Shown piece by piece: positions 1,893 through 35,750 of a DNA stretch of 35,750 nt. This DNA is from a virus. Lineage: Duplodnaviria > Heunggongvirae > Uroviricota > Caudoviricetes. The notes below the pieces were generated by a model. The model was given only the letters and a program-made list of their open reading frames with translations. It was not told where the DNA came from and did not search any database. The stretch covers positions 1 to 35,750 of the IMG/VR virus record IMGVR_UViG_2698536335_000014; one strand, written 5' to 3'. The translations under genes and the position numbers were made by a program. Positions within the stretch are counted from its first letter, which is position 1; each line of letters opens with the position of its first letter.

Positions 1893-4800
1893 GCGTCGTA
1901 TCCCCCCTGATCGCTGTAGTTACTCCTGGCTTTTGCCTTCAGCCTGCGTTCACGTTCATCAAGCTGGCGGGCCACCTCCCGCGCAATATCCTGCGCACTT
2001 TGTCCTGGCTGTGTCTGGATGATGATCTGCGTCGGTGCTTCAATCCGGTAAATGGGCGGCACAGTAGCTGCACGACTCACCATCGCTTCACCGCCTTTTG
2101 CGGGAAGCGCCAAAGGATGCAACGGTGGAAGCTCTGCTGGCGCGGCAGCAACACCCATCATTCCGGCGACAACGGCAGCCAGTGCAGCTGTATTTCTCCG
2201 GCTGGTCACGTTTGCCGGGCCGTTAACAATTTCCGGCCCGTTTTCACCGACGATGCCAAACTGCCCGCGCGGGATATAGCCGCCGCTGTCATACATCCCC
2301 GCAAAGCCATATCCCCATGACGGAAAATCACCCGATGGCATCATCACTTTACCGTCTGCATTCACCGTCGCAGGTTGCTGACGCGTCACGCTTTCCGGCA
2401 GTTTCGCCTTTGCAGCCTCTTTACTGACAATGCCGAGTTTCTCCAGCAACCAGGAAACGCCGGATTTCAGGGAGTCCAGCGGATGCATGACCATATTCAG
2501 CCCTTCTGCCAGTGCCTCCCCGAATCGTCGCCCCATTGCCGCTGCGCTCTGCAGTTCGGCAGAGGTCGACTTAACGGGCGTCAGCAGATCAGTAAACCAG
2601 CCCCACAGCGCCTGCACTTTGTCGCCAATCCACTGGAACACGGGCTTAAGCGGTTCGAACGCTGCACTGATGGGACCTGCCGCCGCTTTGAATCCTTCCA
2701 CCACGCCACCGAGAAATGCGGTGATGGGTTGCCAGTATTTCCAGACAACCAGCGCCACGCCCGCCAGTGCAGTAACCACAAGACCTATCGGACTGAGCAG
2801 AGCACCTAACAGACCAGATATGGCATACAGGGCAACGCGCAGCATCGCCAGTGGACCAGATGCCAGTACTCGCAGCACCGTGCCTGCGGCGGCCAGTCCA
2901 CCGCGCAGTGCCGCCAGAGGATTCATAAACATCACAGCAACAGCACGTAAACCGGATAATCCAGACCGCAAAAGTGCAACCGGCGCACCTGCTACAGTTT
3001 TCAGGACATTTCCCGTCAGTGATGCCGTGCGGCGCAAAGACGACAACGGCGCAGTAAGTAAACCTGCGGCGTTGCCCGATGAAGCAAGCCCGCGTCGCAG
3101 CAGTGCCAGTGGCGCGCCAGCCAGCCAGGACAACGCGCTGCTGGTTCGAGTTACTGCTGTCGTAACGGAAGATAACGTTTTGATACCCAACACAGAGAAT
3201 CCCAGACGGATCACTGCCAGCGGCCCCAGCACTGCAGCCAGCGCCACCGCTAAGGTGCCGAGGCCGACGGTAACCGCAGCCACAACAGCCGATGCTTTCA
3301 TCAGTGTGCCTGTCAGTTCCGGGTTAGCTTCCACCCAGCGACGCAACGCCCCCGTGACGCTTTTCACCGTGTACAGAATATCCATCAGCGGCTGGCGCAG
3401 CGTTTCGCCCAGGCTGCTGAAGGTGTTCTGCGCTCCGGTTTTGACCAGCAACCACTGCGCAGAAAGTGAATCCTTGTTAATGTCGGATTCTTTCTGCATG
3501 GAGCCGAGCGCATCATTGCCCGCTGTCAGTTTTAACTGACGCTGCAGTTCCGGCAGGTTGTTTGCCAGTTTCGCCGCGTCATCGCCAAACTCTTTACCAA
3601 ACAACATAGTCATGGCAGACAGGCGCTTGTCCTGCGGCAGCGCGTTTACCTTCTCCAGCACGCGCTGGATGGTTCCCATCGCATCCTTCGTCATCTGCTT
3701 TTCAATCACTTCAGGATTGAGTTTCAGCAGATTCATCCCTTCAAAGAAACTCTTGCTTTGCATGGTGGCAATGGACAATTCACGCACCATCGCGTTTGCT
3801 GCACTGGCTGCAACCTCTGGCGCAGCGCCCAGTGTCAGGAAGGTGGAACCCAGCGCCGCCGCTTTACGATAATCCAGACGGTCAGCCACACCGCCCAGAC
3901 GTTGCATCACATCAATGATGTCTGCCCCTTTCGACATGGCGTTATCATCCAGATAGTTCAGCGCATCACCGAGCTGTTCAATATTGCGGGTGGGGATTTT
4001 GTAGAGCTGGGCGATTTTCCCCAGACTTTCTGACAGTTCATCCGCTGGCAGCTCAAAGGCTGTTGCCGCCTTTGCTGCCGTACTGGCGAAGGCCAGCAGG
4101 TCACGTTTCTGATCTTCCCAGCTGTCGTCAGGGTTTGCGACGTTCATGCGCGCACCACCTTCAACCAGTGCAGCGAAGTCCACCGCACCGTTTTCCATTG
4201 GCAACTGTTCGCTGGCAGCCTTGATGGCATCCTGCATTTCATAAAAACGTGCAGTGCGGTTGCCATTATCGTCACGCAGACCATTGACCTGCTTTGCCAC
4301 ACCTTTCATGGCATCTTCCATGCTGGTATAGCTTTTTACTGCCGCCATCACTGGCGCACCCATTGCCAGCCCTGCAGCCGTGGTGGTGGCTCCGGCACCT
4401 GCAATACGATCACGCACCTCCAGCGAACGGGCATAACTGGCACGCGCTGCATTCATCCTGCGCTGAGCTTCCCCCAGTCGCTTCAGCCGCGCCTCCTGTT
4501 TCGAAAGTTCCTGGTTATAACGTGATGTTTCACGGGCTAAACGGGCAGTTGCTCCCGCATCGTCTTTCGCAGAAATTCCCGCCCGGTACAGTTCAGCACG
4601 CACAAGCGCCGTCTGCTGCTGCAGCTTTTTCTGGCGTTCTTCCAGGCGCTGAACAGCCAGCCGTTGACGGCCCAGAGCAACAACCTGACGTTGCGAAGGC
4701 GGCCCCATCGCTCCCAGTTCCTGACTGAGCAAATTTGCACGCTGGCGGGCATAGTTCAGCCTGTCGCCTAATTTCTGATTTTCTGCCTGCAGCTTTCGGA

Positions 4801-4966
4801 AGCTGTCCAGACTGCTCCCGGCCTGATCAAGCTGCTTTATTGCATCGCGGGATTTTTTGACAGCAGCAGCCAGTTCTCTTGAACTGGCCTGTGCAGATCG
4901 AAATGGGCGGGTGAGCTTGTCAACCGCATTAAGAATGACCTGCAGACGCAGGTTGTTATCACTCAT
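1889..4966 (-). CDS. T: tail tape measure protein gpT
   Basis: 1025-aa ORF with coiled-coil N-terminus and Ala/Gly/Leu-rich hydrophobic segments; directly downstream of E/E'. Confidence 0.9.
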   Translation of the reverse strand: MSDNNLRLQVILNAVDKLTRPFRSAQASSRELAAAVKKSRDAIKQLDQAGSSLDSFRKLQAENQKLGDRLNYARQRANLLSQELGAMGPPSQRQVVALGRQRLAVQRLEERQKKLQQQTALVRAELYRAGISAKDDAGATARLARETSRYNQELSKQEARLKRLGEAQRRMNAARASYARSLEVRDRIAGAGATTTAAGLAMGAPVMAAVKSYTSMEDAMKGVAKQVNGLRDDNGNRTARFYEMQDAIKAASEQLPMENGAVDFAALVEGGARMNVANPDDSWEDQKRDLLAFASTAAKAATAFELPADELSESLGKIAQLYKIPTRNIEQLGDALNYLDDNAMSKGADIIDVMQRLGGVADRLDYRKAAALGSTFLTLGAAPEVAASAANAMVRELSIATMQSKSFFEGMNLLKLNPEVIEKQMTKDAMGTIQRVLEKVNALPQDKRLSAMTMLFGKEFGDDAAKLANNLPELQRQLKLTAGNDALGSMQKESDINKDSLSAQWLLVKTGAQNTFSSLGETLRQPLMDILYTVKSVTGALRRWVEANPELTGTLMKASAVVAAVTVGLGTLAVALAAVLGPLAVIRLGFSVLGIKTLSSVTTAVTRTSSALSWLAGAPLALLRRGLASSGNAAGLLTAPLSSLRRTASLTGNVLKTVAGAPVALLRSGLSGLRAVAVMFMNPLAALRGGLAAAGTVLRVLASGPLAMLRVALYAISGLLGALLSPIGLVVTALAGVALVVWKYWQPITAFLGGVVEGFKAAAGPISAAFEPLKPVFQWIGDKVQALWGWFTDLLTPVKSTSAELQSAAAMGRRFGEALAEGLNMVMHPLDSLKSGVSWLLEKLGIVSKEAAKAKLPESVTRQQPATVNADGKVMMPSGDFPSWGYGFAGMYDSGGYIPRGQFGIVGENGPEIVNGPANVTSRRNTAALAAVVAGMMGVAAAPAELPPLHPLALPAKGGEAMVSRAATVPPIYRIEAPTQIIIQTQPGQSAQDIAREVARQLDERERRLKAKARSNYSDQGGYDA

Positions 4967-5395
4967 CGTTGGCCCCGCTTCTCTGAATCGCTTTATACCG
5001 CCATTCCAGCACTTCGGTCAGCGGCATAACGTCAGTAACGGATGGCGGCCAGTGAAAAATGGTGGCGATATCTGCCACCAGATCGTCAACCGTCAGGCTG
5101 TCGGTAAACCGGCAAGCACCGACTTCTTCAACAAAAAAGTGACAACCTCAACCGACATGGCAGTGAGATCTGCCGGGTCCATCTCTGCAATTTCCTGTGC
5201 AGTCAGTGCCGGACTGGAGATGCGGGGGATCACGGTCATCATCGCGTTTACATCCATATCCATAATGGCCTGCAGGCGTGTACCGCGCAGCGCACCGGAC
5301 TGCGGTTTACGCAGCACAATTTCGGTGATTTCTGTTTTACCGCGCTTGATGGGGGTATCCAGTTGAATGGTCTTTTCAGTCTGCTTATCGCTCAT
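4959..5395 (-). CDS. gpE+E' -1 programmed frameshift product (tail assembly chaperone)
   Basis: After a -1 slip at the TTTTTTG heptamer (minus strand, plus coords 5133-5139) the frame stays open to a TGA at 4959-4961, overlapping the T start codon, as in P2 E/E' and lambda G/GT. Confidence 0.6.
5093..5395 (-). CDS. E: tail assembly chaperone gpE
   Basis: 100-aa ORF upstream of T; contains slippery heptamer T-TTT-TTG in frame. Confidence 0.85.
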   Translation of the reverse strand: MSDKQTEKTIQLDTPIKRGKTEITEIVLRKPQSGALRGTRLQAIMDMDVNAMMTVIPRISSPALTAQEIAEMDPADLTAMSVEVVTFLLKKSVLAGLPTA

Positions 5396-5974: not shown

Positions 5975-7147
5975 TTACGCGCTGACCTGGCTGGCGAAAT
6001 TCACCAGGTACTGATCGGTGATGCGCTGACGCAGCATCAGGTTTTCAAGTGGCGGCACTGGCGTGTAGTCGTAGTCGATGGTGAGTTTTCCGGCTTTCAG
6101 CGTGTCTTTGTCGTTCACCGACTCATCCAGCCAGCAATCACCACCAATGAGATAGCCCTGACTGACCAGGCTGCGCATTTTGGCGCGGATACCTTCGATA
6201 ATGTCGCGGGCCAGCGACGGGTTAAGCGGTTTATCCACCGCCCACATGTGTGCTTCTGCCATCGTGTCCATCAGCACCTGCGCCGTGCGGGTGTAGTTTT
6301 CGAAGGCAAAGAGCGGGTCATCACTCAGGCAGCGGGAACCCCAGAAGCGGAAACCGTCTTTACGCACAAGCGTGGTGACGTCGTTCTGGTTCAGCAGACC
6401 TGCATCGGTTGCCGGGTCCTGCAGATCCCAGAACACATCTGCAGAAATTCCGGTGACACCGTTCACGCCCACGTTGGACAGGCTTTTGTGCCATCCGGTC
6501 TGCTCGTCAATTTTGGCGCGCAGACCAAGCGCACGGGCGGTGGTATATGCCGTTGCTTCGGCATTCAGCACCGTGTCCCAGCCAGTAAAGTCAGGCCAGA
6601 TCAGCATCCCTTCGCGCTGGCTGAAGTTTTCGCGGTAAGTGATCGCCTCCTGCACTGTCTTGCAGCCATACGCTGACAGGTAAGCAAATCCACGCAGGCT
6701 TTGCGCCACGCTTAGCAACTCAGTAGCTACCGCCTTGGTGTCGTGGCCTGGCACGCCGAGAATGCGCGGTTTAACGCCGAGCTGTGACTGGGCAGATAAC
6801 AGGGCTTTCATACCTGTTTTTTTACCTTCAGCAGTCACTGCGCCGATGATATTGGTCGTGGTTTCGTCTTCCGTTTCACCCTGCGGCACACGCACAACAA
6901 TGGTCACGGGTTTTGCCTGGTCAGCGATGGCATCCAGCGAACGGGCCAGAGTACCTGACTCACCCGCTTTACCGCTGGCAGTCAGCACATCAGTGATCAG
7001 CACGGGTTTATTAAGAGGAAACATTTTTGCATCGGCATCATCGCCCGTGCAGACCATACCCACGATGGCGGTGCTCACCGTGGTAATGGATCGAGTGCCT
7101 TCGTTGACTTCAACAACGCGCACCCCGTGGTGGTAATCCTGAGCCAT
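5975..7147 (-). CDS. FI: contractile tail sheath protein gpFI
   Basis: 390-aa ORF, ATG start, P2 FI-like. Confidence 0.9.
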
Positions 7148-7223
7148 AGTGGCGAACCTCCTGATTGGATTAGGCTTCGCCCTATGTTGAAGTGATTGTG
7201 CCTGACAAACAGCTAAGCGCAGT

Positions 7224-7241
7224 TGTACCGTTATTCACACA
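7224..7241 (-). promoter_or_regulatory. candidate Ogr-dependent late promoter element upstream of FI (TGT-N12-ACA)
   Basis: TGTACCGTTATTCACACA centred about 85 bp upstream of the FI ATG; near-identical to the element upstream of O (TGTACCGACAACCACACA). Confidence 0.5.
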
Positions 7242-7289
7242 AAATGACGGTATTTGTCTGCTTTCAGGGATAATCAAAATAAAGCTGAT

Positions 7290-7862
7290 TCAGGGAGATT
7301 TATTGCTCTTATTTGCCGGAAATTTTCGATAAATGGTAGAAACGCCTACATCAAAAATCAGTGCAATACGCTGTCTTGATTCTCCGGCCTCGAGTAAACG
7401 CCCAATCTGTGCCCACTGTTCGCTGGTCAACTTAGGACGGCGTCCACCTACTCTGCCCTTAGCACGAGCTGCAGCCAGCCCCGCCCTGGTACGTTCAACT
7501 ATCAGTTCGCGTTCCATTTCAGCCAGGGCACCCATGACATGAAAAAAGAAACGGCCCATTGGGGTGCTGGTATCAATACTGTCAGTCAGGCTTCGGAAAT
7601 TCACGCCACGCTGGCGCAGCTCTTCTATCAGCGTAACAAGATGCCGCATACTGCGCCCCAGTCTGTCCAGCTTCCAGACAACCAGCGTGTCTCCTGCCGA
7701 TAGTGTCCTGAGCAGCTTTTTCAGCCCCGGTCTGTCGGACTTGGTGCCACTGATTTTATCCTCAAAAATCCGCTCACATCCCGCACAGTTCAGTGCATTG
7801 CGTTGCAAATCGGTGTTCTGGTCATTTGTTGACACGCGTACATAGCCAATAAGCATGATCAT
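7290..7862 (-). CDS. serine DNA invertase (Hin/Gin/Cin/Pin family), copy 1
   Basis: 190 aa; N-terminal resolvase catalytic domain (GYVRVSTNDQ with catalytic Ser) and C-terminal HTH; ATG start. Confidence 0.9.
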   Translation of the reverse strand: MIMLIGYVRVSTNDQNTDLQRNALNCAGCERIFEDKISGTKSDRPGLKKLLRTLSAGDTLVVWKLDRLGRSMRHLVTLIEELRQRGVNFRSLTDSIDTSTPMGRFFFHVMGALAEMERELIVERTRAGLAAARAKGRVGGRRPKLTSEQWAQIGRLLEAGESRQRIALIFDVGVSTIYRKFPANKSNKSP

Positions 7863-7911
7863 CCCCCTGAATAAAAACCGGAGATGATGCCAGTTAGCCG
7901 TTATCTCTGCA

Positions 7912-7937
7912 TTTTCATAAACGTTGGTTTGGGAGAA
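7912..7937. other. invertase crossover site 1 (hix/gix/cix-like)
   Basis: TTTTCATAAACGTTGGTTTGGGAGAA, about 50 bp upstream of the invertase start; inverted relative to sites 2 and 3; imperfect dyad of the TTCTCCTAAACCAAGG type. Confidence 0.6.
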
Positions 7938-8285
7938 GCGGCGAAAAGGGATGTGGGCACAGGAGAAAATCAGATACCGGATATGTCATCCTGGAAAAGA
8001 AATCCGAGTTCTAATCGCTGGAGAAAATTGCCTGATGGAACCATCATTCAAATGGGAATATCAGCATCAGGGCCATTAGGCTCACCTGTAAATATCACCC
8101 TGCCGATATCTTTCAGCAATACCAATTATTGTGTTGTTGCATCGTACGATAATGCACGGTCAGGTGTGTCAACAATGGTTAGTTTTGCAGCATTACCTGT
8201 TTCACCATCGCAATTTTCCCTGATGTCATCTGTGACTGAGCAAGGAATAAATCCTTTTGCTTACTGGATTGCTTTTGGAGATTGA
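7938..8285 (+). CDS. alternative tail-fibre C-terminal variable segment (Sv'-like), no start of its own
   Basis: Open frame runs through site 1 (..GLGE|AAKRD..) in the same phase as H at site 3 (..GLGE|GSALP..); it would fuse to the H constant part after inversion. Confidence 0.55.
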   Translation, partial: AAKRDVGTGENQIPDMSSWKRNPSSNRWRKLPDGTIIQMGISASGPLGSPVNITLPISFSNTNYCVVASYDNARSGVSTMVSFAALPVSPSQFSLMSSVTEQGINPFAYWIAFGD

Positions 8286-8288
8286 TAA

Positions 8289-8708
8289 ATGGACAGATAC
8301 TTCTATTCACAAAAAGAAAATGGTTTTTTTACCGATTTAAATAAAGCACCTTCAGATGCTGTTGAGATAACCACGGATGAATGGCTGTCACTACTGGATG
8401 GTCAGGATAATGGCATGAAAATAGTCAGCAATCAGGAGGGATATCCGGTTTTGACAGAGCAACCACCTTTATCAAAAGAAAACCTTATTGCATTGGCAGA
8501 GTTGAAAAAAGGAAAACTTATTAATGAAGCCAACGAGCACATGAACAGCAGGCAATGGCCTGGTAAAGCGGCTATTGGTCGTCTGAAAGGTGAGGAACTG
8601 GCGCAATATAATTTGTGGCTGGATTATCTGGACGCACTGGAACTGGTTGATACCTCCAGTGCTCCAGATATTGAATGGCCTACGCCTCCGGCAGTTCAGG
8701 CCAGATGA
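8289..8708 (+). CDS. tail fibre assembly protein (U'/G-like), partner of the alternative fibre segment
   Basis: 139 aa; C-terminal motif (DTSSAPDIEWPTPP) shared with the convergent chaperone ORF at 8680-9282; ATG start 4 nt after the Sv' stop. Confidence 0.75.
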   Translation: MDRYFYSQKENGFFTDLNKAPSDAVEITTDEWLSLLDGQDNGMKIVSNQEGYPVLTEQPPLSKENLIALAELKKGKLINEANEHMNSRQWPGKAAIGRLKGEELAQYNLWLDYLDALELVDTSSAPDIEWPTPPAVQAR

Positions 8709-9282
8709 CATCCGGCGCGGTGCTGGTATCTGTTGCCGTCACCGCGTCAATGTAATCCAGCACGGCGTTAAGTCTGGTTGTTTCTGCCTGCGTCAGTTTA
8801 CGTCCGGCCTGTAATTTCAGCTGAATCAGACTAATGGAAGCCATTGCTGCATCAATCAGTGACTGGCGCTGTGCTTCTGCCGCGTCTACTGCGGCACTAT
8901 GCTGTGCCTCAGTATCTGTCACCCATTTCTCACCATCCCATTTATCGTATGGCGTTAACGGGACGATAGTGGTTGTATTTTCAGGGTAATCACCCGGAGC
9001 TGTGATTTCTTTTGATTCTCCCGTTTCGGTGTTATAGACAACTTCACCGCGATGGTCTGGCACATATTCCCATGAGTTAAAATCTGCAGAACGGCAGATT
9101 GCATAACCAGCTTTATGTGTAACTGGTGCATCTAAACAAGAACATGCCGGGATACCGACGCCAACCGCAAGATATTCAGTTGATGTGGAAATATATTCCC
9201 GCGTTTCACCATCATAATTATAAATGGTAATGTCTCCCGCTTTTATGGCAATGAGTTCGTTATTTAATACGGCTTTATTCAT
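8680..9282 (-). CDS. G: tail fibre assembly protein (gpG/U-like), full length
   Basis: 200 aa; ATG overlaps the stop of the upstream variable segment (TGATG); 3' end converges on and overlaps U'. Confidence 0.8.
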   Translation of the reverse strand: MNKAVLNNELIAIKAGDITIYNYDGETREYISTSTEYLAVGVGIPACSCLDAPVTHKAGYAICRSADFNSWEYVPDHRGEVVYNTETGESKEITAPGDYPENTTTIVPLTPYDKWDGEKWVTDTEAQHSAAVDAAEAQRQSLIDAAMASISLIQLKLQAGRKLTQAETTRLNAVLDYIDAVTATDTSTAPDVIWPELPEA

Positions 9283-9779
9283 CAGGCAGCTCTCACGATA
9301 TAATTAAAGGCAATGTTACGAGGACGGTTTTCGTTTGCAGTTGGAACAATTCTTGAAGCATCAAGGCCAATCACTTTTGGGTAAACAGCGCCATCTGTTC
9401 TTTCAGTCACCATACTTCTGATTAAGGAGAAATAACTATTGTTCGTTGAGGGATTCAAAGGCACCACTGCCCCCTTAAACGAGCCTACTGATTCCCATAT
9501 TGAATAATTTTCGGTGTTTACAGTCTTGAACTCACCATAGATATTACGTATGGCATCGCCCTGAGCGGATAATATTGCCCTCCCCGTATCCATACCACGT
9601 CCGTCATCCCAGCCACGAATAAACTCACCACGTAAATCAGGCAATTTATTTGTCGGGTAAGCCTTTGCCAGTTCTGGGTATTCTTCAGCAGAAAAAGCTG
9701 CTCCGTTGCATTTTAGCCAGCCTGTTGGCGGAGTGGCTGAGGGCCACGGAACAGGTACGCCAACAGGCAATGCTGAGCC
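9282..9779 (-). CDS. tail-fibre C-terminal variable segment A, copy inside the invertible segment (no start of its own)
   Basis: Identical to the C-terminal 166 aa of H (10979-12538); bounded upstream by site 2. Confidence 0.6.
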   Translation of the reverse strand, partial: GSALPVGVPVPWPSATPPTGWLKCNGAAFSAEEYPELAKAYPTNKLPDLRGEFIRGWDDGRGMDTGRAILSAQGDAIRNIYGEFKTVNTENYSIWESVGSFKGAVVPLNPSTNNSYFSLIRSMVTERTDGAVYPKVIGLDASRIVPTANENRPRNIAFNYIVRAA

Positions 9780-9805
9780 TTCTCCTAAACCAACGTTTAT
9801 GAAAA
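9780..9805. other. invertase crossover site 2
   Basis: TTCTCCTAAACCAACGTTTATGAAAA; its reverse complement matches site 1 except for one base. Confidence 0.6.
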
Positions 9806-9854
9806 TGCAGAGATAACGGCTAACTGGCATCATCTCCGGTTTTTATTCAGGGGG

Positions 9855-10427
9855 ATGATCATGCTTATTGGCTATGTACGCGTGTCAACAAATGACCAGA
9901 ACACCGATTTGCAACGCAATGCACTGAACTGTGCGGGATGTGAGCGGATTTTTGAGGATAAAATCAGTGGCACCAAGTCCGACAGACCGGGGCTGAAAAA
10001 GCTGCTCAGGACACTATCGGCAGGAGACACGCTGGTTGTCTGGAAGCTGGACAGACTGGGGCGCAGTATGCGGCATCTTGTTACGCTGATAGAAGAGCTG
10101 CGCCAGCGTGGCGTGAATTTCCGAAGCCTGACTGACAGTATTGATACCAGCACCCCAATGGGCCGTTTCTTTTTTCATGTCATGGGTGCCCTGGCTGAAA
10201 TGGAACGCGAACTGATAGTTGAACGTACCAGGGCGGGGCTGGCTGCAGCTCGTGCTAAGGGCAGAGTAGGTGGACGCCGTCCTAAGTTGACCAGCGAACA
10301 GTGGGCACAGATTGGGCGTTTACTCGAGGCCGGAGAATCAAGACAGCGTATTGCACTGATTTTTGATGTAGGCGTTTCTACCATTTATCGAAAATTTCCG
10401 GCAAATAAGAGCAATAAATCTCCCTGA
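9855..10427 (+). CDS. serine DNA invertase, copy 2 (protein identical to copy 1)
   Basis: 190-aa product identical to the 7290-7862 ORF; lies in the inverted duplication. Confidence 0.85.
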   Translation: MIMLIGYVRVSTNDQNTDLQRNALNCAGCERIFEDKISGTKSDRPGLKKLLRTLSAGDTLVVWKLDRLGRSMRHLVTLIEELRQRGVNFRSLTDSIDTSTPMGRFFFHVMGALAEMERELIVERTRAGLAAARAKGRVGGRRPKLTSEQWAQIGRLLEAGESRQRIALIFDVGVSTIYRKFPANKSNKSP

Positions 10428-10569
10428 ATCAGCTTTATTTTGATTATCCCTGAAAGCAGACAAATACCGTCATTTTGTGTGAATAACGGTACAACTGCGC
10501 TTAGCTGTTTGTCAGGCACAATCACTTCAACATAGGGCGAAGCCTAATCCAATCAGGAGGTTCGCCACT

Positions 10570-10691
10570 ATGGCTCAGGATTACCACCACGGGGTGCGCG
10601 TTGTTGAAGTCAACGAAGGCACTCGATCCATTACCACGGTGAGCACCGCCATCGTGGGTATGGTCTGCACGGGCGATGATGCCGATGCAAA
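10570..10691 (+). pseudogene. duplicated 5' fragment of FI (first ~40 codons, [17 protein letters not shown]...), truncated
   Basis: Exact inverted copy of the FI start region; ends at a breakpoint at 10691/10692. Confidence 0.75.
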
Positions 10692-10979
10692 CGGAGCTGT
10701 GATTTCTTTTGATTCTCCCGTTTCGGTGTTATAGACAACTTCACCGCGATGGTCTGGCACATATTCCCATGAGTTAAAATCTGCAGAACGGCAGATTGCA
10801 TAACCAGCTTTATGTGTAACTGGTGCATCTAAACAAGAACATGCCGGGATACCGACGCCAACCGCAAGATATTCAGTTGATGTGGAAATATATTCCCGCG
10901 TTTCACCATCATAATTATAAATGGTAATGTCTCCCGCTTTTATGGCAATGAGTTCGTTATTTAATACGGCTTTATTCAT
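10581..10979 (-). pseudogene. chimeric ORF: tail fibre assembly protein N-terminal 96 codons fused to antisense of the FI fragment
   Basis: Protein matches U through ..ESKEITAP, then reads through the breakpoint into sequence antisense to FI. Confidence 0.7.
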
Positions 10980-11502
10980 CAGGCAGCTCTCACGATATAA
11001 TTAAAGGCAATGTTACGAGGACGGTTTTCGTTTGCAGTTGGAACAATTCTTGAAGCATCAAGGCCAATCACTTTTGGGTAAACAGCGCCATCTGTTCTTT
11101 CAGTCACCATACTTCTGATTAAGGAGAAATAACTATTGTTCGTTGAGGGATTCAAAGGCACCACTGCCCCCTTAAACGAGCCTACTGATTCCCATATTGA
11201 ATAATTTTCGGTGTTTACAGTCTTGAACTCACCATAGATATTACGTATGGCATCGCCCTGAGCGGATAATATTGCCCTCCCCGTATCCATACCACGTCCG
11301 TCATCCCAGCCACGAATAAACTCACCACGTAAATCAGGCAATTTATTTGTCGGGTAAGCCTTTGCCAGTTCTGGGTATTCTTCAGCAGAAAAAGCTGCTC
11401 CGTTGCATTTTAGCCAGCCTGTTGGCGGAGTGGCTGAGGGCCACGGAACAGGTACGCCAACAGGCAATGCTGAGCCTTCTCCTAAACCAAGGTATGCGAG
11501 AA
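10692..11502. repeat. direct repeat copy 2 (U 5' part + variable segment A of H + site 3 half)
   Basis: Duplicate of 8995-9805. Confidence 0.8.
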
Positions 11503-12538
11503 GACCAGCTACATCCTTTCCACTCAAATTAGTCAGCGTATTGTCCAGCGGTTGTTTACCTGCCAGTGCATTAAGCATTGTCGTGGCAAAGTTCGGGTCA
11601 TTCCCCAGCGCCGCCGCCAGTTCGTTCAGTGTATCCAGTGCCGCAGGTGCAGAACCCACCATTGCCGCAATCGCCGATTTCACAAAAGCCGTAGTGGCAA
11701 TCTGTGTATTGTTGACCGACTGCGCCGCCGTGGGGGCTGTTGGCGTTCCGGTGAGTGCCGGACTCAACAGCGGCGCTTTCAGTGCCAGCGCATTATTAAT
11801 GGTGGTACTGAATTTCGGATCATTGTTAATGGCTACGGCTATTTCTTTCAGCGTGTCCAGCGTGGCTGGCGCACCATTAATAATAGCCGTCAGTGCAGCC
11901 TGAACAAACTCGGTGGTCGCAATCTGCGTGGTGTTATTCCCTGCTGCTGGCGTTGGCGCTTTGGGTGTCCCGGTAAACGTCGGACTTTCTTTGGGTGCAT
12001 ACTGTGAATGCGGGTCCGGTGCGGCAAGATGTTTTGCCATCTGATCATCCGCGTACACCTTCAGCTCCAGTGCCTTGTCATCCACATACTTGCGGGTTGC
12101 CAGCACTACAGCAGGGTCGATTTTCAGGGTGATATTGTCCGTGCTGCTGGTAATCAGCACCATGCGCACGGTCTGAGTGCGCCCGCTACCTTCAGCCAGT
12201 TGCGGCTTATAGCTTTCCGGGCAGTTGCCCACGGCAATCAATGCCCCGGACTCATCAAACAAGCCCACTTCACGTATCCACCAACCGCCCTCGTTTTCAG
12301 GGATCACCTGTTCGGCAATAATCTGACTGCTGTTCTGCGGGTCGATATAGAGCATATTCAGCGCAGCCCGGCGTTTCTCATTTACCAGTGCAGTCTGCTT
12401 TGAGTCTGGCGTTGGCAATACTCCGCCGCCATCGCCGACCGCCATATGGGTAATTTTTAGCGGCACACCGAGCGCGGCGGCGCTGGCAAGTTTCGCCGCG
12501 CCAATATCCGTCAGCAGGGTATAAAATTTTGTGCTCAT
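10979..12538 (-). CDS. H: tail fibre protein gpH (constant N-terminal part fused to variable segment A)
   Basis: 519 aa; N-terminus MSTKFYTLLTDIGAAKLA..MAVGDGGG resembles P2 gpH as I recall it; crossover site 3 lies inside the ORF at the constant/variable junction. Confidence 0.9.
   Translation of the reverse strand: MSTKFYTLLTDIGAAKLASAAALGVPLKITHMAVGDGGGVLPTPDSKQTALVNEKRRAALNMLYIDPQNSSQIIAEQVIPENEGGWWIREVGLFDESGALIAVGNCPESYKPQLAEGSGRTQTVRMVLITSSTDNITLKIDPAVVLATRKYVDDKALELKVYADDQMAKHLAAPDPHSQYAPKESPTFTGTPKAPTPAAGNNTTQIATTEFVQAALTAIINGAPATLDTLKEIAVAINNDPKFSTTINNALALKAPLLSPALTGTPTAPTAAQSVNNTQIATTAFVKSAIAAMVGSAPAALDTLNELAAALGNDPNFATTMLNALAGKQPLDNTLTNLSGKDVAGLLAYLGLGEGSALPVGVPVPWPSATPPTGWLKCNGAAFSAEEYPELAKAYPTNKLPDLRGEFIRGWDDGRGMDTGRAILSAQGDAIRNIYGEFKTVNTENYSIWESVGSFKGAVVPLNPSTNNSYFSLIRSMVTERTDGAVYPKVIGLDASRIVPTANENRPRNIAFNYIVRAA
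11477..11502. other. invertase crossover site 3, inside H at the constant/variable boundary
   Basis: TTCTCCTAAACCAAGGTATGCGAGAA; left half identical to site 2 and in the same orientation. Confidence 0.6.
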
Positions 12539-22747: not shown

Positions 22748-23784
22748 TGGGAAAGAGTAAGAAAAACCGCGCTGCGGCGACGAATCAGCTCAAGCATAAA
22801 AGCCAGACTTCAGCCGAAGCATTCAGCTTCGGTGATCCCGTTCCTGTACTTGACCGCCGCGAACTGCTGGACTATGTGGAATGCGTACAGACAGATCGCT
22901 GGTATGAGCCTCCTGTCAGCTTTGACGGACTGGCGCGCACCTTCCGCGCTGCCGTGCATCACAGTTCACCAATTGCGGTGAAATGCAACATTCTGACCAG
23001 CACCTACATCCCTCACCCGCTGCTCAGCCAGCAGGCTTTTTCGCGTTTTGTACAGGACTATCTGGTTTTTGGTAACGCCTACCTGGAAAAACGCACGAAC
23101 CGCTTCGGAGAGGTCATCGCTCTTGAGCCTGCGCTGGCAAAATACACCCGACGCGGGTTAGACCTGGATACCTACTGGTTTGTGCAATATGGTATGACAA
23201 CCCAGCCGTATCAGTTCACGAAAGGCAGCATCTTTCATCTGTTGGAACCGGACATCAACCAGGAGATCTACGGCCTGCCCGGTTATCTTTCTGCCATTCC
23301 GTCCGCTCTGCTCAACGAGTCCGCCACGCTGTTCCGCCGGAAGTATTACATTAACGGTAGTCATGCAGGCTTCATCATGTACATGACCGATGCCGCGCAA
23401 AACCAGGAGGATGTGAACAACCTCCGCAACGCAATGAAAAGCGCCAAAGGTCCAGGCAACTTCCGCAACTTGTTTATGTACTCGCCTAACGGTAAAAAAG
23501 ACGGGCTTCAGATCATCCCATTGTCAGAAGTCGCGGCGAAGGATGAATTTCTTAACATCAAGAACGTGAGTCGGGATGACATGATGGCAGCGCATCGCGT
23601 GCCGCCGCAAATGATGGGGATTATGCCTAATAATGTCGGGGGGTTTGGGGATGTGGAAAAAGCCGCTCGCGTTTTTGTACGTAACGAACTGCAGCCATTG
23701 CAGAAACGTATGTGCGAACTGAACGAATGGATTGAGGAAAAAGTAATAAATTTTGAAGCGTATCAGCTCTCAATTGAGCAATAA
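22747..23784 (+). CDS. Q: portal protein gpQ
   Basis: ATG at 22747 overlaps the P stop (TGATG); track ORF starts at TTG 22744; P2 gpQ-like. Confidence 0.9.
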   Translation: MGKSKKNRAAATNQLKHKSQTSAEAFSFGDPVPVLDRRELLDYVECVQTDRWYEPPVSFDGLARTFRAAVHHSSPIAVKCNILTSTYIPHPLLSQQAFSRFVQDYLVFGNAYLEKRTNRFGEVIALEPALAKYTRRGLDLDTYWFVQYGMTTQPYQFTKGSIFHLLEPDINQEIYGLPGYLSAIPSALLNESATLFRRKYYINGSHAGFIMYMTDAAQNQEDVNNLRNAMKSAKGPGNFRNLFMYSPNGKKDGLQIIPLSEVAAKDEFLNIKNVSRDDMMAAHRVPPQMMGIMPNNVGGFGDVEKAARVFVRNELQPLQKRMCELNEWIEEKVINFEAYQLSIEQ

Positions 23785-23818
23785 CTCTCAAATAGCTGAA
23801 TAAGCCCGCAAAAGCTAA

Positions 23819-23840
23819 CCTATAGATCAGGGTCTATAGG
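23819..23840. terminator. candidate bidirectional hairpin terminator between convergent Q and the cargo operon
   Basis: cctataga-tcaggg-tctatagg: 8-bp perfect stem, 6-nt loop, followed by TTTAT; overlaps the stop codon of the 215-aa ORF. Confidence 0.35.
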
Positions 23841-24467
23841 TTTATGATGTAATGATACAGGATAATGCACAACTTGATAATCCAGCTTACTTACAGTATG
23901 AAGGTGCTGACTATAAAAAACCAAGGGGTTTTTTGGGCAATCAATAATATTAACGGATTTACAAGCATGAATCCTAGGTGCATTCTTTGATAAGAATGTT
24001 TTCCATGAATCCATCATGTCAGAACAGGAAGCGTTTTTCGTATAAATAATTAAACCACCCGAAGAGCTATTTATAGTCCCAGTACTATACCGCTCGGTAA
24101 GTTGTGCATAACCTTTAAAAAGATATAAATATGAAGAATGTTTTTTAGCTTCCCCATGCCAGATATAATCTGCAAGGGTAATAGATATATCACAATGTCC
24201 TCTCTGGTTCTTCTCGTGACTGGCTTCGAGCCCCAGATATCTATTTTCAATATACGAAAGCAAATATAGAGTTAACTGATCTTCAGAGAGATCAAAGTTA
24301 ATTTTATTGCCATTTTGCTCTAATTTACTTACAGCGTAATCCAGCTCCTTTCGAACAAGACTGTTGAAATTAGAATAGGACTCCAACGCAAATTGAATCC
24401 TTTGAATGGCAAAGTGAACCTTCTGCAAATGAAAGTTTTTCTCCAAATCATCCAGACTTGTAAGCAT
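23820..24467 (-). CDS. hypothetical protein, third gene of the AT-rich cargo operon
   Basis: 215 aa, ATG start overlapping the upstream stop (translational coupling); no motif I recognise. Confidence 0.7.
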   Translation of the reverse strand: MLTSLDDLEKNFHLQKVHFAIQRIQFALESYSNFNSLVRKELDYAVSKLEQNGNKINFDLSEDQLTLYLLSYIENRYLGLEASHEKNQRGHCDISITLADYIWHGEAKKHSSYLYLFKGYAQLTERYSTGTINSSSGGLIIYTKNASCSDMMDSWKTFLSKNAPRIHACKSVNIIDCPKNPLVFYSQHLHTVSKLDYQVVHYPVSLHHKPIDPDL

Positions 24468-24895
24468 TAGTACGCCCCTTCCTTTGTGAAATTAATAACT
24501 GTAAAGAAAGGAAATACATATTTTTTGTAGTCTGGCACAATCTCACCAGTATATGGATGCTCTAAACCTTGATTATCTTCAGCATCAATCACGTCCGCAA
24601 TGCTTATATTAACTGGATCGAAACCATCGTCTATAAATTGATAGTTTAATTTCAAAAAATTAACTTTTGGATTACACAAAACTTGGATAGCCAAGTAAAT
24701 ATCATGCTCATCCACTTTAGCGCCCCCCTTATTCGAAATCGCTATATCAAATAAAAGGTTATAACTAATGAATATATTAGGAGAGCGAGCTGCTAACTTT
24801 GCAAGTTTTTCATAAAACATGCACGCCAAAACTCCCACTTCTGGGCGTTCTGAGCATATGTCTTGTATAGTCTTTGCCAAGTTAGCATCCTTCAT
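24467..24895 (-). CDS. hypothetical protein, second gene of the AT-rich cargo operon
   Basis: 142 aa, ATG start 12 bp downstream of the first gene; no motif I recognise. Confidence 0.7.
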   Translation of the reverse strand: MKDANLAKTIQDICSERPEVGVLACMFYEKLAKLAARSPNIFISYNLLFDIAISNKGGAKVDEHDIYLAIQVLCNPKVNFLKLNYQFIDDGFDPVNISIADVIDAEDNQGLEHPYTGEIVPDYKKYVFPFFTVINFTKEGAY

Positions 24896-24907
24896 TTTTG
24901 TCTCCAG

Positions 24908-26014
24908 CTATAGTATCAGCTTCGTAAGCGTTTCGAAATCATCACGAGAGATACATTTACTAAGTATAGCAAAATTCACTGGTGAACCAGAGCTTCCACT
25001 AAGGTACCGTCTTAGCGTTCCTGGTATAGTAAGTTCTACATTGTCCGCTAACTGTAGTAAAGGATTTGTTCGCTCAACCCTGATGCCTATCCTATAAAGT
25101 CCGATATTGCCTACGGCTTTAATACCTTCTTGATTGAAGATATCTTGTCTCAAATCTTTAGTGGAGTCAGTTTTCCTTTCCTTATGTGTTGTCCCTTCAG
25201 GGGTAAGGAATGAAAGCTCAAAAACTTTATAATTAAGAGTTGAGTATGGTTTTTGATCTTGCTTAAAGATTGGTTCAATCAAGGGAAAGAAATCTCTTTC
25301 TTTTGATGCAAACTCAGCACCTATAATATTATAAAGTTCTCTTACTACAGTACTCTTTGCAAACAAGACGCTCTCACCTATTGTATTAATACCTGCATCT
25401 ATCAAAATAGAGATAGTAGAGTTGGTCTTATTAAAAATGCACACATCAAAACATTGATGCTTTTCTTTTTTAGTAGCAATGATCTCTTCGTAGCCACTGT
25501 ACTGCGGTAAACTTTTAGGCGAAATCCGCTCTCTAATTTTTTGCTCTCTAACGGAACTAAATAGAGCTAAAGCCTGATTATTGCTCTCAGAATAATGAAC
25601 TAAGTTTATTTTATTCTTCCCCGACGCATTAATTTCCTGCTCAGAAAGGATTACATCTGAGGCGACAGAAGGCTGTTCAGATAAATCCCACTTTAATTTC
25701 ATAGCCTTTGTTAGCGAGGAAATTATTTGGTTGTCTACTGATAAACAAAAAAAAGCTTTATCACCGTAGACCAATTGACCAAATATTAAATTATTTACAG
25801 ACCTTATGATATCATTAAATTTATTTAAATTCTTTTCCTTTAATTCTGTTAATTCTTCCAGTATTTTTCCATGAGTAGCATCTCTACCTTTACCACGAGC
25901 TAATCCAAGAGCTGAAATAACAGGTTTTGCCACGTTCCATGGAAATCTCGTGATTAGTGTCAAAATGGATTTCATTTCTGCTTCACTAAGTACTACTGGG
26001 ACATTTCCTGTCAT
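24908..26014 (-). CDS. hypothetical protein, first gene of the AT-rich cargo operon
   Basis: Track ORF starts at GTG 26041; first ATG at 26014 (MTGNVPV..); about 370 aa; no Walker A, HEPN or other motif I recognise. Confidence 0.7.
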   Translation of the reverse strand: MTGNVPVVLSEAEMKSILTLITRFPWNVAKPVISALGLARGKGRDATHGKILEELTELKEKNLNKFNDIIRSVNNLIFGQLVYGDKAFFCLSVDNQIISSLTKAMKLKWDLSEQPSVASDVILSEQEINASGKNKINLVHYSESNNQALALFSSVREQKIRERISPKSLPQYSGYEEIIATKKEKHQCFDVCIFNKTNSTISILIDAGINTIGESVLFAKSTVVRELYNIIGAEFASKERDFFPLIEPIFKQDQKPYSTLNYKVFELSFLTPEGTTHKERKTDSTKDLRQDIFNQEGIKAVGNIGLYRIGIRVERTNPLLQLADNVELTIPGTLRRYLSGSSGSPVNFAILSKCISRDDFETLTKLIL

Positions 26015-26157
26015 CTTAATTACCTGTTGAAATTGCAACACAAGGTCGTCTTCGGGAGATCAATGGGAGTATTCCAATAACTTACCCAGGTATAGGAGTG
26101 CTTTCAAGTCTAAGACTATCTTCTGTCTAACAGCGCATGTTTTCATCTAAGCGCGCG

Positions 26158-26176
26158 CTCGTATCCCCGCCACGCC
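26158..26176 (-). other. candidate cos cohesive-end sequence
   Basis: Minus strand reads GGCGTGGCGGGGATACGAG; the first 13 nt match the GC-rich 19-nt cohesive end of 186/P2 as I recall it (GGCGTGGCGGGGAAAGCAT / GGCGAGGCGGGGAAAGCAC); sits in a 416-bp non-coding gap. Confidence 0.45.
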
Positions 26177-26457
26177 TGCCCGCTTTATGTAGTGGTTTTC
26201 ATGCACCTGCATGACATGAGTAAAAGCCCGCCGGTTCTGGCAGGTCTCTGCAAAAACGAGCCTCAATTGATCATGCGATTTCATGCAGCATAGTCATGCA
26301 CAGCCAAGGGAAGCGTAAATCCGTATCAGAATGACCGCTGAAAAGCGAATCATAAGGGTTTACAAAGATGAAACTCCGCTGTGAGCGAAAAGCGGACGTT
26401 GGAAGTTTAAAACTCGCGAACTACTCAGCGTCCATTGATGCGTATTGTGTAACGTGA

Positions 26458-27102
26458 TTAACCACAGATGATATTGAAACGTTCTCCGGAAATCTTGACC
26501 ATAATGTCAGACAGTTTGCTGACGGCATGGGCTTCAGATGATCCCAGAGCGTCAGGCTGAACAGCTATTACCGAAGCTCCACTTGCCAGCCCTGCTTTTA
26601 TACCCGCAGATGCATCCTCAAATACCACGCATTCACCAGGCTCAAGGCCCAAAGCCAAAGCTGCTTTGATGTAACCCTCGGGACTTGGTTTTCCCGTCAT
26701 TACATCTTCTGCACACACCATTACTATGGGTAAGGGGAGATTAGCCGCTTTCATCCTGTTTTCGGCAAGCATTCTGCCTGCAGAAGTGACAAGTGCCCAG
26801 CTATCCGGTGGCAGTTTTGATAAGAGTGCAGCGGCCCCTTTTACTTCAGTAACGCCTTCTGTCGTGTTGATTTCAACCTCTTCGAGTGAGGCCGCGATTT
26901 TATTGGTTTTCTCACCTGCACCAATAAAATGCGTTAGTGTATCAATCGTTTGCCGCCCGTGTGCGTAAGCAATCACAGCCTGAGAATCAAGACCGTATTC
27001 TGCACAAAAATCTCTCCAGACGCTTTCCACTACGGCTGTTGAATCAACCAGCGTACCGTCCATATCGAATAAAAAACCCTTAGCGTTGAATATCATTGCC
27101 AT
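26458..27102 (-). CDS. HAD-superfamily phosphatase (YfbT-like sugar phosphatase / beta-phosphoglucomutase family)
   Basis: 214 aa; N-terminal FDMDGTLVDS motif (DxDGT) and conserved C-terminal E-D-A-G motif; resembles E. coli YfbT as I recall it. Confidence 0.8.
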   Translation of the reverse strand: MAMIFNAKGFLFDMDGTLVDSTAVVESVWRDFCAEYGLDSQAVIAYAHGRQTIDTLTHFIGAGEKTNKIAASLEEVEINTTEGVTEVKGAAALLSKLPPDSWALVTSAGRMLAENRMKAANLPLPIVMVCAEDVMTGKPSPEGYIKAALALGLEPGECVVFEDASAGIKAGLASGASVIAVQPDALGSSEAHAVSKLSDIMVKISGERFNIICG

Positions 27103-27125
27103 TCCTTAATGGTTGCAGAAGAAAG

Positions 27126-27764
27126 TTAATCAAACCATGTTTTTTCATCACCTTTCGCTACTCTCAGGCTGACAGCAATCTGCTCAGGCACAATTCTTGA
27201 AAGCGACAATTCAGGCAGGTCGTTGACATCAAAAAAATCAGCATCGAGTGACTCATGGCTGATTGACAGGCTGCCACCTACTTCTTCACAGAGAAAAATC
27301 AGCTTGTAAACATGCCAGGGTAAAGGCGGATGGCCGTGAAGATTACGATCCCAAACTCCCAATAGTTTAGTCACTCTGACTTTTAATCCGGTTTCTTCTT
27401 CGACCTCTCGACGCACAGCTTCAGAAGGTGTATCTCCAACATCTGCCCATCCGCCAGGAAGACTCCATAATCCATCTGCAGCCTCTTTCACCATCAGAAT
27501 ACGATTATTACGCAGGATAAACGCACGCACATCTGTTTTGGGCGTCGCGTAACCCGTTTCCGATACATGAAACAAATCATTGCGGCTAATATCAAACTGC
27601 GAACTCAGCAGTCCAGCGGCAATTTCACGCAAGGCTTCATAGCGTTCCTTGTCAAAGACGTCTTTTGAATAGGTCAGGCCTGACTGCGCGAGGGCCTTTA
27701 GTCTCTGGGCAACAAAAATAAGCTTTTCTTGGGTCAACACTTCAGACATGTTTTTCATCTTCAT
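27126..27764 (-). CDS. NUDIX hydrolase
   Basis: 212 aa; Nudix box GGWADVGDTPSEAVRREVEEETGL (GX5EX7REUXEEXGU pattern). Confidence 0.85.
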   Translation of the reverse strand: MKMKNMSEVLTQEKLIFVAQRLKALAQSGLTYSKDVFDKERYEALREIAAGLLSSQFDISRNDLFHVSETGYATPKTDVRAFILRNNRILMVKEAADGLWSLPGGWADVGDTPSEAVRREVEEETGLKVRVTKLLGVWDRNLHGHPPLPWHVYKLIFLCEEVGGSLSISHESLDADFFDVNDLPELSLSRIVPEQIAVSLRVAKGDEKTWFD

Positions 27765-27840
27765 TTATGTATTCAGAGTTCCTGTTAAGGATACTGCTCA
27801 ATTCAATGAAGAATAACAAATGCATCTGGCACCTGCTATG

Positions 27841-27862
27841 TCCGCTTCTGGCACAAAGCGGA
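27841..27862. terminator. possible hairpin downstream of the DinI-like gene
   Basis: tccgctt-ctggcaca-aagcgga: 7-bp stem; no clear U-tract. Confidence 0.25.
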
Positions 27863-27951
27863 CGATCATTTATCAAAATGACCGCCCACCTTATTTCACT
27901 CGTTGTCCAAACTAACCTCCATCAGAATAAATTCTCTTGGGGCAACGTTTC

Positions 27952-34697: not shown

Positions 34698-35750
34698 ATG
34701 GCTGTACGAAAACTCACCACAGGAAAATGGCTTTGCGAATGTTACCCCGCCGGACGTAGTGGGCGTCGTGTGCGTAAACAATTCGCCACCAAAGGCGAAG
34801 CACTGGCTTTTGAGCGTCACACGATGGAAGAAACCGAAGCAAAGCCCTGGCTAGGTGAATCAGTGGATCGTCGAACACTGAAAGACGTGGTTGAGCTATG
34901 GTTCAAACTACATGGTAAATCACTGACTGCTGGGCAGCATGTCTATGACAAATTGCTGCTGATGGTTGACGCTCTGGGCAATCCCCTTGCAACTGATCTA
35001 ACCTCTAAAATGTTTGCCCACTATCGAGATAAACGCCTGACAGGTGAGATCTACTTCAGCGAGAAATGGAAGAAAGGAGCAAGCCCGGTCACCATTAACC
35101 TGGAGCAAAGCTATCTAAGTAGTGTTTTTAGCGAACTATCCCGCCTGGGCGAATGGTCGTATCCGAACCCACTGGAGAACATGCGAAAATTCACCATCGC
35201 AGAAAAAGAGATGGCATGGCTTACCCATGAGCAGATTGTTGAATTACTGGCTGATTGCAAACGTCAGGACCCAATTCTGGCACTGGTAGTTAAGATATGC
35301 TTAAGCACAGGCGCACGCTGGCGAGAAGCCGTAAATCTTACTCGTTCACAGGTGACCAAATACCGAATTACCTTTGTAAGAACGAAGGGGAAGAAAAACA
35401 GAAGCATCCCTATCAGTAAAGAGCTTTACGAAGAGATCATGGCGCTTGATGGGTTCAATTTCTTCACAGACTGCTATTTTCAATTTTTATCCGTGATGGA
35501 AAAAACGTCTATCGTGCTCCCTCGCGGTCAACTCACACACGTTCTGCGCCATACGTTTGCGGCGCACTTCATGATGTCGGGTGGAAACATTCTGGCCTTA
35601 CAAAAAATTCTCGGACACCACGATATAAAAATGACTATGCGTTACGCACATCTGGCACCGGATCATCTGGAAACGGCGCTCCGTTTCAATCCTCTGGCAA
35701 CGCTGCCAAGTGGCGACAAAGTGGCGGCAGCGGTTGGCATTACCCCGTAA
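34698..35750 (+). CDS. int: tyrosine integrase (P2 Int family)
   Basis: ATG 34698 with SD ggaggg; MAVRKLTTGKW.. resembles the P2 Int N-terminus; C-terminal region carries R..HxxR..Y catalytic residues (LRHTFAAHF..MRYAHL). Confidence 0.9.
   Translation: MAVRKLTTGKWLCECYPAGRSGRRVRKQFATKGEALAFERHTMEETEAKPWLGESVDRRTLKDVVELWFKLHGKSLTAGQHVYDKLLLMVDALGNPLATDLTSKMFAHYRDKRLTGEIYFSEKWKKGASPVTINLEQSYLSSVFSELSRLGEWSYPNPLENMRKFTIAEKEMAWLTHEQIVELLADCKRQDPILALVVKICLSTGARWREAVNLTRSQVTKYRITFVRTKGKKNRSIPISKELYEEIMALDGFNFFTDCYFQFLSVMEKTSIVLPRGQLTHVLRHTFAAHFMMSGGNILALQKILGHHDIKMTMRYAHLAPDHLETALRFNPLATLPSGDKVAAAVGITP

Follow-up and report, generated by a model that had tools for sequence, protein, structure and literature searches.

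The window, that is the whole stretch of 35,750 nt that was analysed, holds a P2-like prophage of E. coli in which the tail-fibre genes adjoin a gene for a DNA invertase. This Pin-like serine invertase, with catalytic Ser9, is encoded on the minus strand (7290-7856; 188 amino acids counted from MLIGY, the open reading frame extending to 7862), and its gene lies just outside the first of three 26-bp crossover sites, with the start 68 bp from the site centre. Site 1 (7912-7937) separates the invertase gene from the silent cassette Sv'. The invertible segment proper, 1866 bp in length (7926-9791), corresponds to a block of about 1.87 kb that near-isogenic genomes carry in opposite orientations. 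According to open reading frames and Pfam matches, it contains Sv' (7926-8285; Gp53-like_C domain) and U' (8289-8708; Caudo_TAP domain) on the plus strand and U (8680-9282; Caudo_TAP domain) and Sv (9282-9791; Collar domain) on the minus strand. Beyond Sv come site 2 (9780-9805), an extra stretch of 1697 bp (9794-11490) and site 3 (11477-11502), which is located inside the gene for tail fibre H (10979-12538, minus strand). H combines a P2-type fibre N-terminal domain with a Collar domain; its constant N-terminal part, Sc (11491-12538, minus strand; residues 1 to about 349), carries the Pfam Phage_tail_fib N-terminal domain and is collinear in flipped and unflipped genomes.

All three sites were found where an earlier reading of the letters by themselves (the sequence-only reading) had placed them. 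Site 1 reads TTTTCATAAACG TT GGTTTGGGAGAA, with the core TT at 7924-7925, and its reverse complement is TTCTCCCAAACC AA CGTTTATGAAAA; site 2 reads TTCTCCTAAACC AA CGTTTATGAAAA, and site 3 reads TTCTCCTAAACC AA GGTATGCGAGAA, with the core AA at 11489-11490. Sites 1 and 3 are the real sites, equivalent to pixR and pixL, respectively, and lie on opposite strands, that is in inverted orientation; site 3 is also present in unflipped complete genomes. The outer half of site 3, GGTATGCGAGAA, belongs to the constant side and the inner half, TTCTCCTAAACC, to the Sv side. Site 2 is a recombinant junction composed of this inner half and of the outer half of site 1, and the stretch that we regard as artefactual starts here. 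The claim that the sites share the 14-nt half-site TTCTCCTAAACCAA held exactly for sites 2 and 3, but in site 1, where it lies on the opposite strand, there is one mismatch, C for T at position 7. When up to two mismatches were allowed, the half-site matched three times in the window (0.19 expected; none of 100 shuffles reached three), and, with sites 2 and 3 lying inside a 100%-identical duplication of 799 bp, only two of these occurrences are independent.

The sites were aligned to the reference sequences of hix, gix, cix, pix, mix, nix and bix given in Table 3 of PMC3241671. This alignment, which had been named as a check, bore out the suspected resemblance to hix/gix/cix: sites 1, 2 and 3 keep every one of the 14 columns that do not vary among hixL, gixL, cixL, cixR, pixL and pixR, the central AA included. 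The reverse complement of site 1 equals pixR of e14 in full (26 of 26), site 2 agrees with pixR at 25 of 26 positions, and pixR was located in the e14 element of K-12 as well; site 3 agrees with both pixL and cixR at 22 of 26 positions. The core dinucleotide AA (TT on the other strand) is identical in the three sites and is the same in hix, cix and pix; religation after a 180-degree rotation requires an identical central dinucleotide in both sites.

Recombination at the site centre had been predicted to exchange the C-terminal part of the fibre in frame, and this was found to be the case. The fibre frame passes through the residues GLGE on both variable parts, giving ..YLGLGE|GSALPVG.. in H (residue 351) and ..GLGE|AAKRDVG.. 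in the alternative form. Sc joined to Sv yields a protein of 519 amino acids, followed by chaperone U, and Sc joined to Sv' yields one of 469 amino acids, followed by chaperone U'; an in-silico fusion of Sc with Sv' equals the annotated 469-aa tail protein of strain AST262 except for one residue. The two variable domains are indeed unrelated, with a BLASTP E value of 2.0 and with different Pfam families (Collar versus Gp53-like_C). By analogy with Mu and P1, it is a reasonable inference that the two tips would provide two host-range specificities.

The invertase matched the Pfam domains Resolvase (2.4e-53) and HTH_7 (5.8e-16) as well as the Gin structure 3uj3 (E = 6.7e-93). Counted from the MLIGY start, its identity amounts to 85% with PinE, 74% with Gin and 77% with Cin, and the residues S9, K46, Q150, R153 and L154 are invariant across the four proteins. 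In Hin, K47, R48 and K51 as well as Q151, R154 and L155 are contacts to Fis/enhancer and are reported to be specific to Fis-dependent invertases (PMC3798978). The invertase of the window possesses all of the counterparts, namely K46, K47 and R50 for the former group and Q150, R153 and L154 for the latter, so that an intact open reading frame retains both the catalytic and the Fis-contact residues.

In P1, a recombinational (Fis) enhancer is annotated at nt 19-90 of cin, and the equivalent stretch of the window would be 7767-7838 (minus strand). Two candidate G-N13-C motifs are found in it, at gene nt 22-36 and 71-85, with their starts 49 nt apart, the first of which is not conserved in cin. 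The stretch is 88, 74 and 76% identical to pin, gin and cin, respectively, which is no excess over the rest of the gene after allowing for coding. When third-codon-position identity was compared between nt 19-90 and the remainder of the invertase gene, an excess was absent with respect to gin (0.42 versus 0.42) and cin (0.46 versus 0.41), and the excess with respect to pinE (0.71 versus 0.56) was small and based on 24 positions only. Conservation of the candidate enhancer is therefore inseparable from coding constraint, and the argument for Fis dependence comes solely from the protein residues and from family membership. Most likely, the switch would need Fis together with an enhancer located early in the invertase gene.

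Both orientations of the segment occur in natural genomes. The prophage is present in opposite orientations in two pairs of complete genomes, LD22-1 versus LD26-1 and 10035776-3 versus AST262, and in both pairs the flanks are collinear at an identity of at least 99.96% while the 1.87-kb middle block is inverted. Unflipped genomes carry TTCTCCT..GGTATG[C/T]GAGAA and TTCTCCC..CGTTTATGAAAA, whereas flipped genomes carry TTCTCCC..GGTATG[C/T]GAGAA and TTCTCCT..CGTTTATGAAAA. Since the T or C at position 7 of the inner half-site is carried along with the inverted segment and the outer halves remain where they are, exchange takes place within AAACCAA, a stretch of 7 bp, which is consistent with a cut at the central AA. 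Site 2 of the window has exactly the sequence found between Sv and the invertase in the flipped genomes AST262 and LD26-1, and in AST262 the flipped junction was recovered at 100% identity. Junctions were counted with 500-bp probes against complete E. coli genomes at a coverage of at least 80%; Sv'|Sc was found in 18 genomes, Sv'|invertase in 92, Sv|Sc in 396 and Sv|invertase in 850. RecA-mediated inversion as the source of both orientations was rejected for the canonical locus, where the 26-bp sites are the only inverted homology.

LD26-1 and LD22-1 share their source and place (faeces, Dafeng) and have near-equal chromosome lengths and an equal number of annotated features. They form a natural pair for phenotype testing.

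The extra 1697 bp, by which canonical genomes are shorter here, lie outside the real locus and consist of two parts that meet at 10691|10692, each a 100%-identical repeat of sequence found elsewhere in the window. Positions 9794-10690 are the reverse complement of 7027-7923, a stretch with the invertase gene and the intergenic region that ends 122 nt into the sheath gene. Positions 10692-11490 are a direct copy of 8995-9793, covering Sv together with the first 288 nt of U. At their full extent, the perfect repeats comprise an inverted one of 905 bp (7026-7930 with 9787-10691) and a direct one of 799 bp (8995-9793 with 10692-11490). Both parts of the extra sequence start at a crossover site and run towards the joint, where the parental sequences have neither microhomology nor a core dinucleotide in common; an invertase event at secondary (quasi) sites was rejected on this ground as the origin of the joint. 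The closest complete E. coli genomes (99.6-99.7% identity) have 4002 bp where the window spans 5701 bp. A 500-bp probe across the joint was covered in none of 5426 complete E. coli genomes, from which the duplicated layout was likewise absent, and a look-up of the chimeric 132-aa open reading frame gave no match.

Exact-pattern scans of viral, genome and metagenome contig collections with the 32-nt joint sequence also gave no match, and the reason became clear from the public record itself. By means of the exact 519-aa H protein, the same duplicated gene order was found on contig CXZX01000009.1 of GCA_001277675.1, which over 17,560 nt differs from the window at a single position. This position is an N, it corresponds to 10691 of the window, where the window shows an A, and it falls exactly at the joint, which explains why the exact scans were empty. 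An N at the only non-homologous junction of the extra sequence indicates that the junction is a gap placeholder in a scaffolded draft and not sequenced DNA, a gap which the A in the window conceals. Site 2 must stem from real flipped molecules, as in the unflipped state k-mers connecting Sv with the invertase flank do not exceed 7 nt. Being the exact flipped-state junction, site 2 indicates that the draft combines reads of both orientations, and the presence of both states' junctions in a single draft assembly means that the segment switched within one culture.

It is very probable, in our judgement, that the locus is a two-site tail-fibre switch of the Pin/e14 type (Din family) in a P2-like E. 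coli prophage, and that the third site and the second invertase are artefacts of a draft of mixed orientation. On the minus strand of the window, the real order would be Sc of H, site 3, Sv and U, then in the opposite direction U' and Sv', followed by site 1, the invertase gene and the tail sheath gene. On the model of Hin, Gin and Cin, dimers of the invertase would bind the two inverted 26-bp sites and would most likely be joined by Fis on an enhancer in the 5' end of their own gene. Both sites would then be cut with a 2-bp stagger at the central AA/TT, one pair of subunits would rotate by 180 degrees and the ends would be religated, leaving the 1866-bp segment inverted. One orientation is expected to produce Sc+Sv, a fibre of 519 amino acids with a collar-type tip, together with U, and the other Sc+Sv', a fibre of 469 amino acids with a gp53-like tip, together with U'. 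As for the draft, a culture containing both orientations might have caused contigs to break at the crossover sites; the left contig would have been extended from flipped-state reads (Sv|invertase) and the right contig from unflipped-state reads (Sc|Sv-U), and the two could then have been joined over a placeholder of one N. Such a history of mixed reads would be the simplest account of the extra sequence, and mixed orientations in clonal E. coli cultures have been documented, P2-like prophages included (PMC4272514).

Much of what the sequence-only reading had proposed is upheld by the natural flipped genomes, namely that the sites define how the fibre switches; the three-site architecture is not, as site 2 and the second invertase copy belong to a stretch absent from the 5426 genomes and containing the N. 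If that architecture were real, an inverted duplication would have generated a shufflon-like locus with three pix sites, at which several inversions and one deletion would be possible. The window does read through the joint without an N, the site pairs 1/2 and 1/3 are inverted and could in principle recombine, and true three-site switches exist in P2-like prophages of EPEC E2348/69 (PMC4272514). However, the public source record has its N exactly at the sole non-homologous joint, which shows neither microhomology nor a shared core dinucleotide, and both repeats are 100% identical. Neither the 5426 complete E. coli genomes (joint or duplicated layout) nor the viral, genome and metagenome collections (joint) contain this arrangement, in which, moreover, chaperone U would be truncated directly after H as the chimeric 132-aa frame. 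Site 2 is also precisely the product expected from site 1 and site 3. In a shufflon-like locus, one real genome would contain at least three functional crossover sites; in canonical complete genomes there are exactly two, together with one invertase, in the order sheath, invertase, Sv', U', U, H. We therefore regard a real layout with three sites and two invertases as very unlikely. It is likewise very unlikely that the N of the source record is a single uncalled base and that the strain carries a real inverted duplication with a three-site, two-invertase locus; if this were true, a new shufflon-like arrangement would have been caught just after arising from a simple Pin-type switch.

One may also suppose that the sites are relics, that the invertase is inactive and that the two orientations arose by rare homologous or illegitimate recombination, as could be suggested by the related prophage L011, which has lost site 1 and the N-terminus of the invertase. 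Yet the canonical locus offers no inverted homology besides the two 26-bp sites, whose length is insufficient for efficient RecA recombination, and in two independent genome pairs the breakpoints fall within at most 7 bp around the site centre. The invertase frame is intact and has all catalytic and Fis-contact residues, and the draft assembly contains the junctions of both states, indicating switching within one culture. Relic sites are thus a very unlikely alternative to a two-site Pin-type switch.

The locus is an ordinary member of the classic Din family, a Pin-type tail-fibre switch. Among the closest known systems is the P segment of e14 in K-12 (PinE, pixL/pixR), which has the same arrangement of a constant fibre part, a site, an Sv-TfaE-like cassette, a TfaP-like-Sv' cassette, a second site and an invertase gene. 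Here pixL and pixR are at equivalent places, and pixR is fully matched by site 1. Identities amount to 85-87% between the invertase and PinE, 92.5% between U and TfaE, 58% between Sv and StfE, 55% between U' and TfaP and 30% between Sv' and StfP. In contrast to e14, which is a defective lambdoid element, the host element in the window is an intact P2-like myovirus prophage, its constant part is a P2 H-type N-terminus, and site 3 departs from pixL at 4 of 26 positions. The G segment of Mu (Gin, gix) and the C segment of P1 (Cin, cix) resemble the locus in having a 74-77% identical serine invertase, inverted 26-bp sites and an Sc part with Sv/U and Sv'/U' as its alternative cassettes; the enhancer near the start of the invertase gene, which is annotated in P1, has a candidate equivalent in the window. 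The segment of the window is nevertheless shorter (1.87 kb versus about 3 to 4.2 kb), its variable domains are unrelated to S of Mu and P1, and its core is AA, as in hix, cix and pix, whereas the gix core is GA. With Hin/hix of Salmonella flagellar phase variation, the locus shares the recombinase subfamily, the site consensus, the Fis-contact residues and, presumably, control by Fis and enhancer, but Hin flips a promoter whereas here coding cassettes are swapped.

Among P2-like elements, prophages of EPEC E2348/69 possess invertible tail-fibre loci whose variants coexist in clonal cultures (PMC4272514; Goldberg et al., 2014), and they are similar to the present case in their invertase, inverted repeats and alternative fibre C-termini. 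One EPEC locus has three true repeats and four variants (PMC4272514), whereas the real locus of the window is of the simple two-variant type. Several P2-like phage records also have an annotated invertase at the equivalent position. The window itself was not found in the phage collection, its best match there reaching 67% query coverage at 93% identity.

Tail-fibre segments that invert are already known from P2-like prophages of E. coli (PMC4272514). The biological interest of one more presumed host-range switch of the Pin/Gin type, in a P2-like prophage common in E. coli, is small; the natural pairs of flipped and unflipped genomes do locate the crossover to within 7 bp. In practical terms the case matters more: when an invertible segment is mixed in a sequenced culture, scaffolded drafts can acquire phantom duplications, in this instance an additional invertase gene, a third site and a truncated chaperone, which readers of the raw sequence will mistake for architecture. 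Such a phantom duplication can at the same time serve as evidence of an active switch in the culture concerned.

The open reading frame of the silent cassette (7884-8285, plus strand) starts at an ATG located 42 nt outside the crossover site, and its N-terminus MMPVSRYLCIFINVGLGE is encoded by the flank on the invertase side. Either cassette therefore gains the same leader when it adjoins the invertase gene (7884-8285 on the plus strand and 9282-9833 on the minus strand of the window). RefSeq annotates such leader-bearing cassette frames as proteins, and stfE of K-12 is marked as a pseudogene.

The related prophage L011 (GCA_012342255.1) encodes an identical H protein. At 10650-10712 of L011, equivalent to 7447-8160 of the window, 714 bp are gone, so that Sv' lacks its 5' part, site 1 is absent and the invertase gene is short of its first 139 codons; the junction shows a 2-bp microhomology (TG). 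The prophage would be locked in the Sv orientation. Some 1.4 kb of the tape-measure gene (3604-5018 of the window) are likewise missing from L011, and the losses are either real deletions or assembly faults.

Position 1 of the window is the stop codon of ogr (minus strand) and position 35750 is the stop codon of the integrase gene; the window is thus a whole P2-like prophage cut at gene boundaries, and the att sites lie outside it. In PSS-11, the related prophage is flanked by ybjL and rcdA. The window carries a cargo region (23691-27942) between portal gene Q and replication gene A, at the place that old/tin occupy in P2. Nothing corresponds to this region in the PSS-11 prophage, which is collinear elsewhere and has AIPR and HNH genes at this point. 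In the window, three minus-strand open reading frames of the region (23820-24467, 24467-24895 and 24908-26041) had no Pfam or PADLOC match; they are followed by genes for a HAD hydrolase (26458-27102) and for a NUDIX protein (27126-27764) with a weak match to PADLOC PDC-S07 (6.6e-10). Region 23691-27942 is a possible uncharacterised defence cargo.
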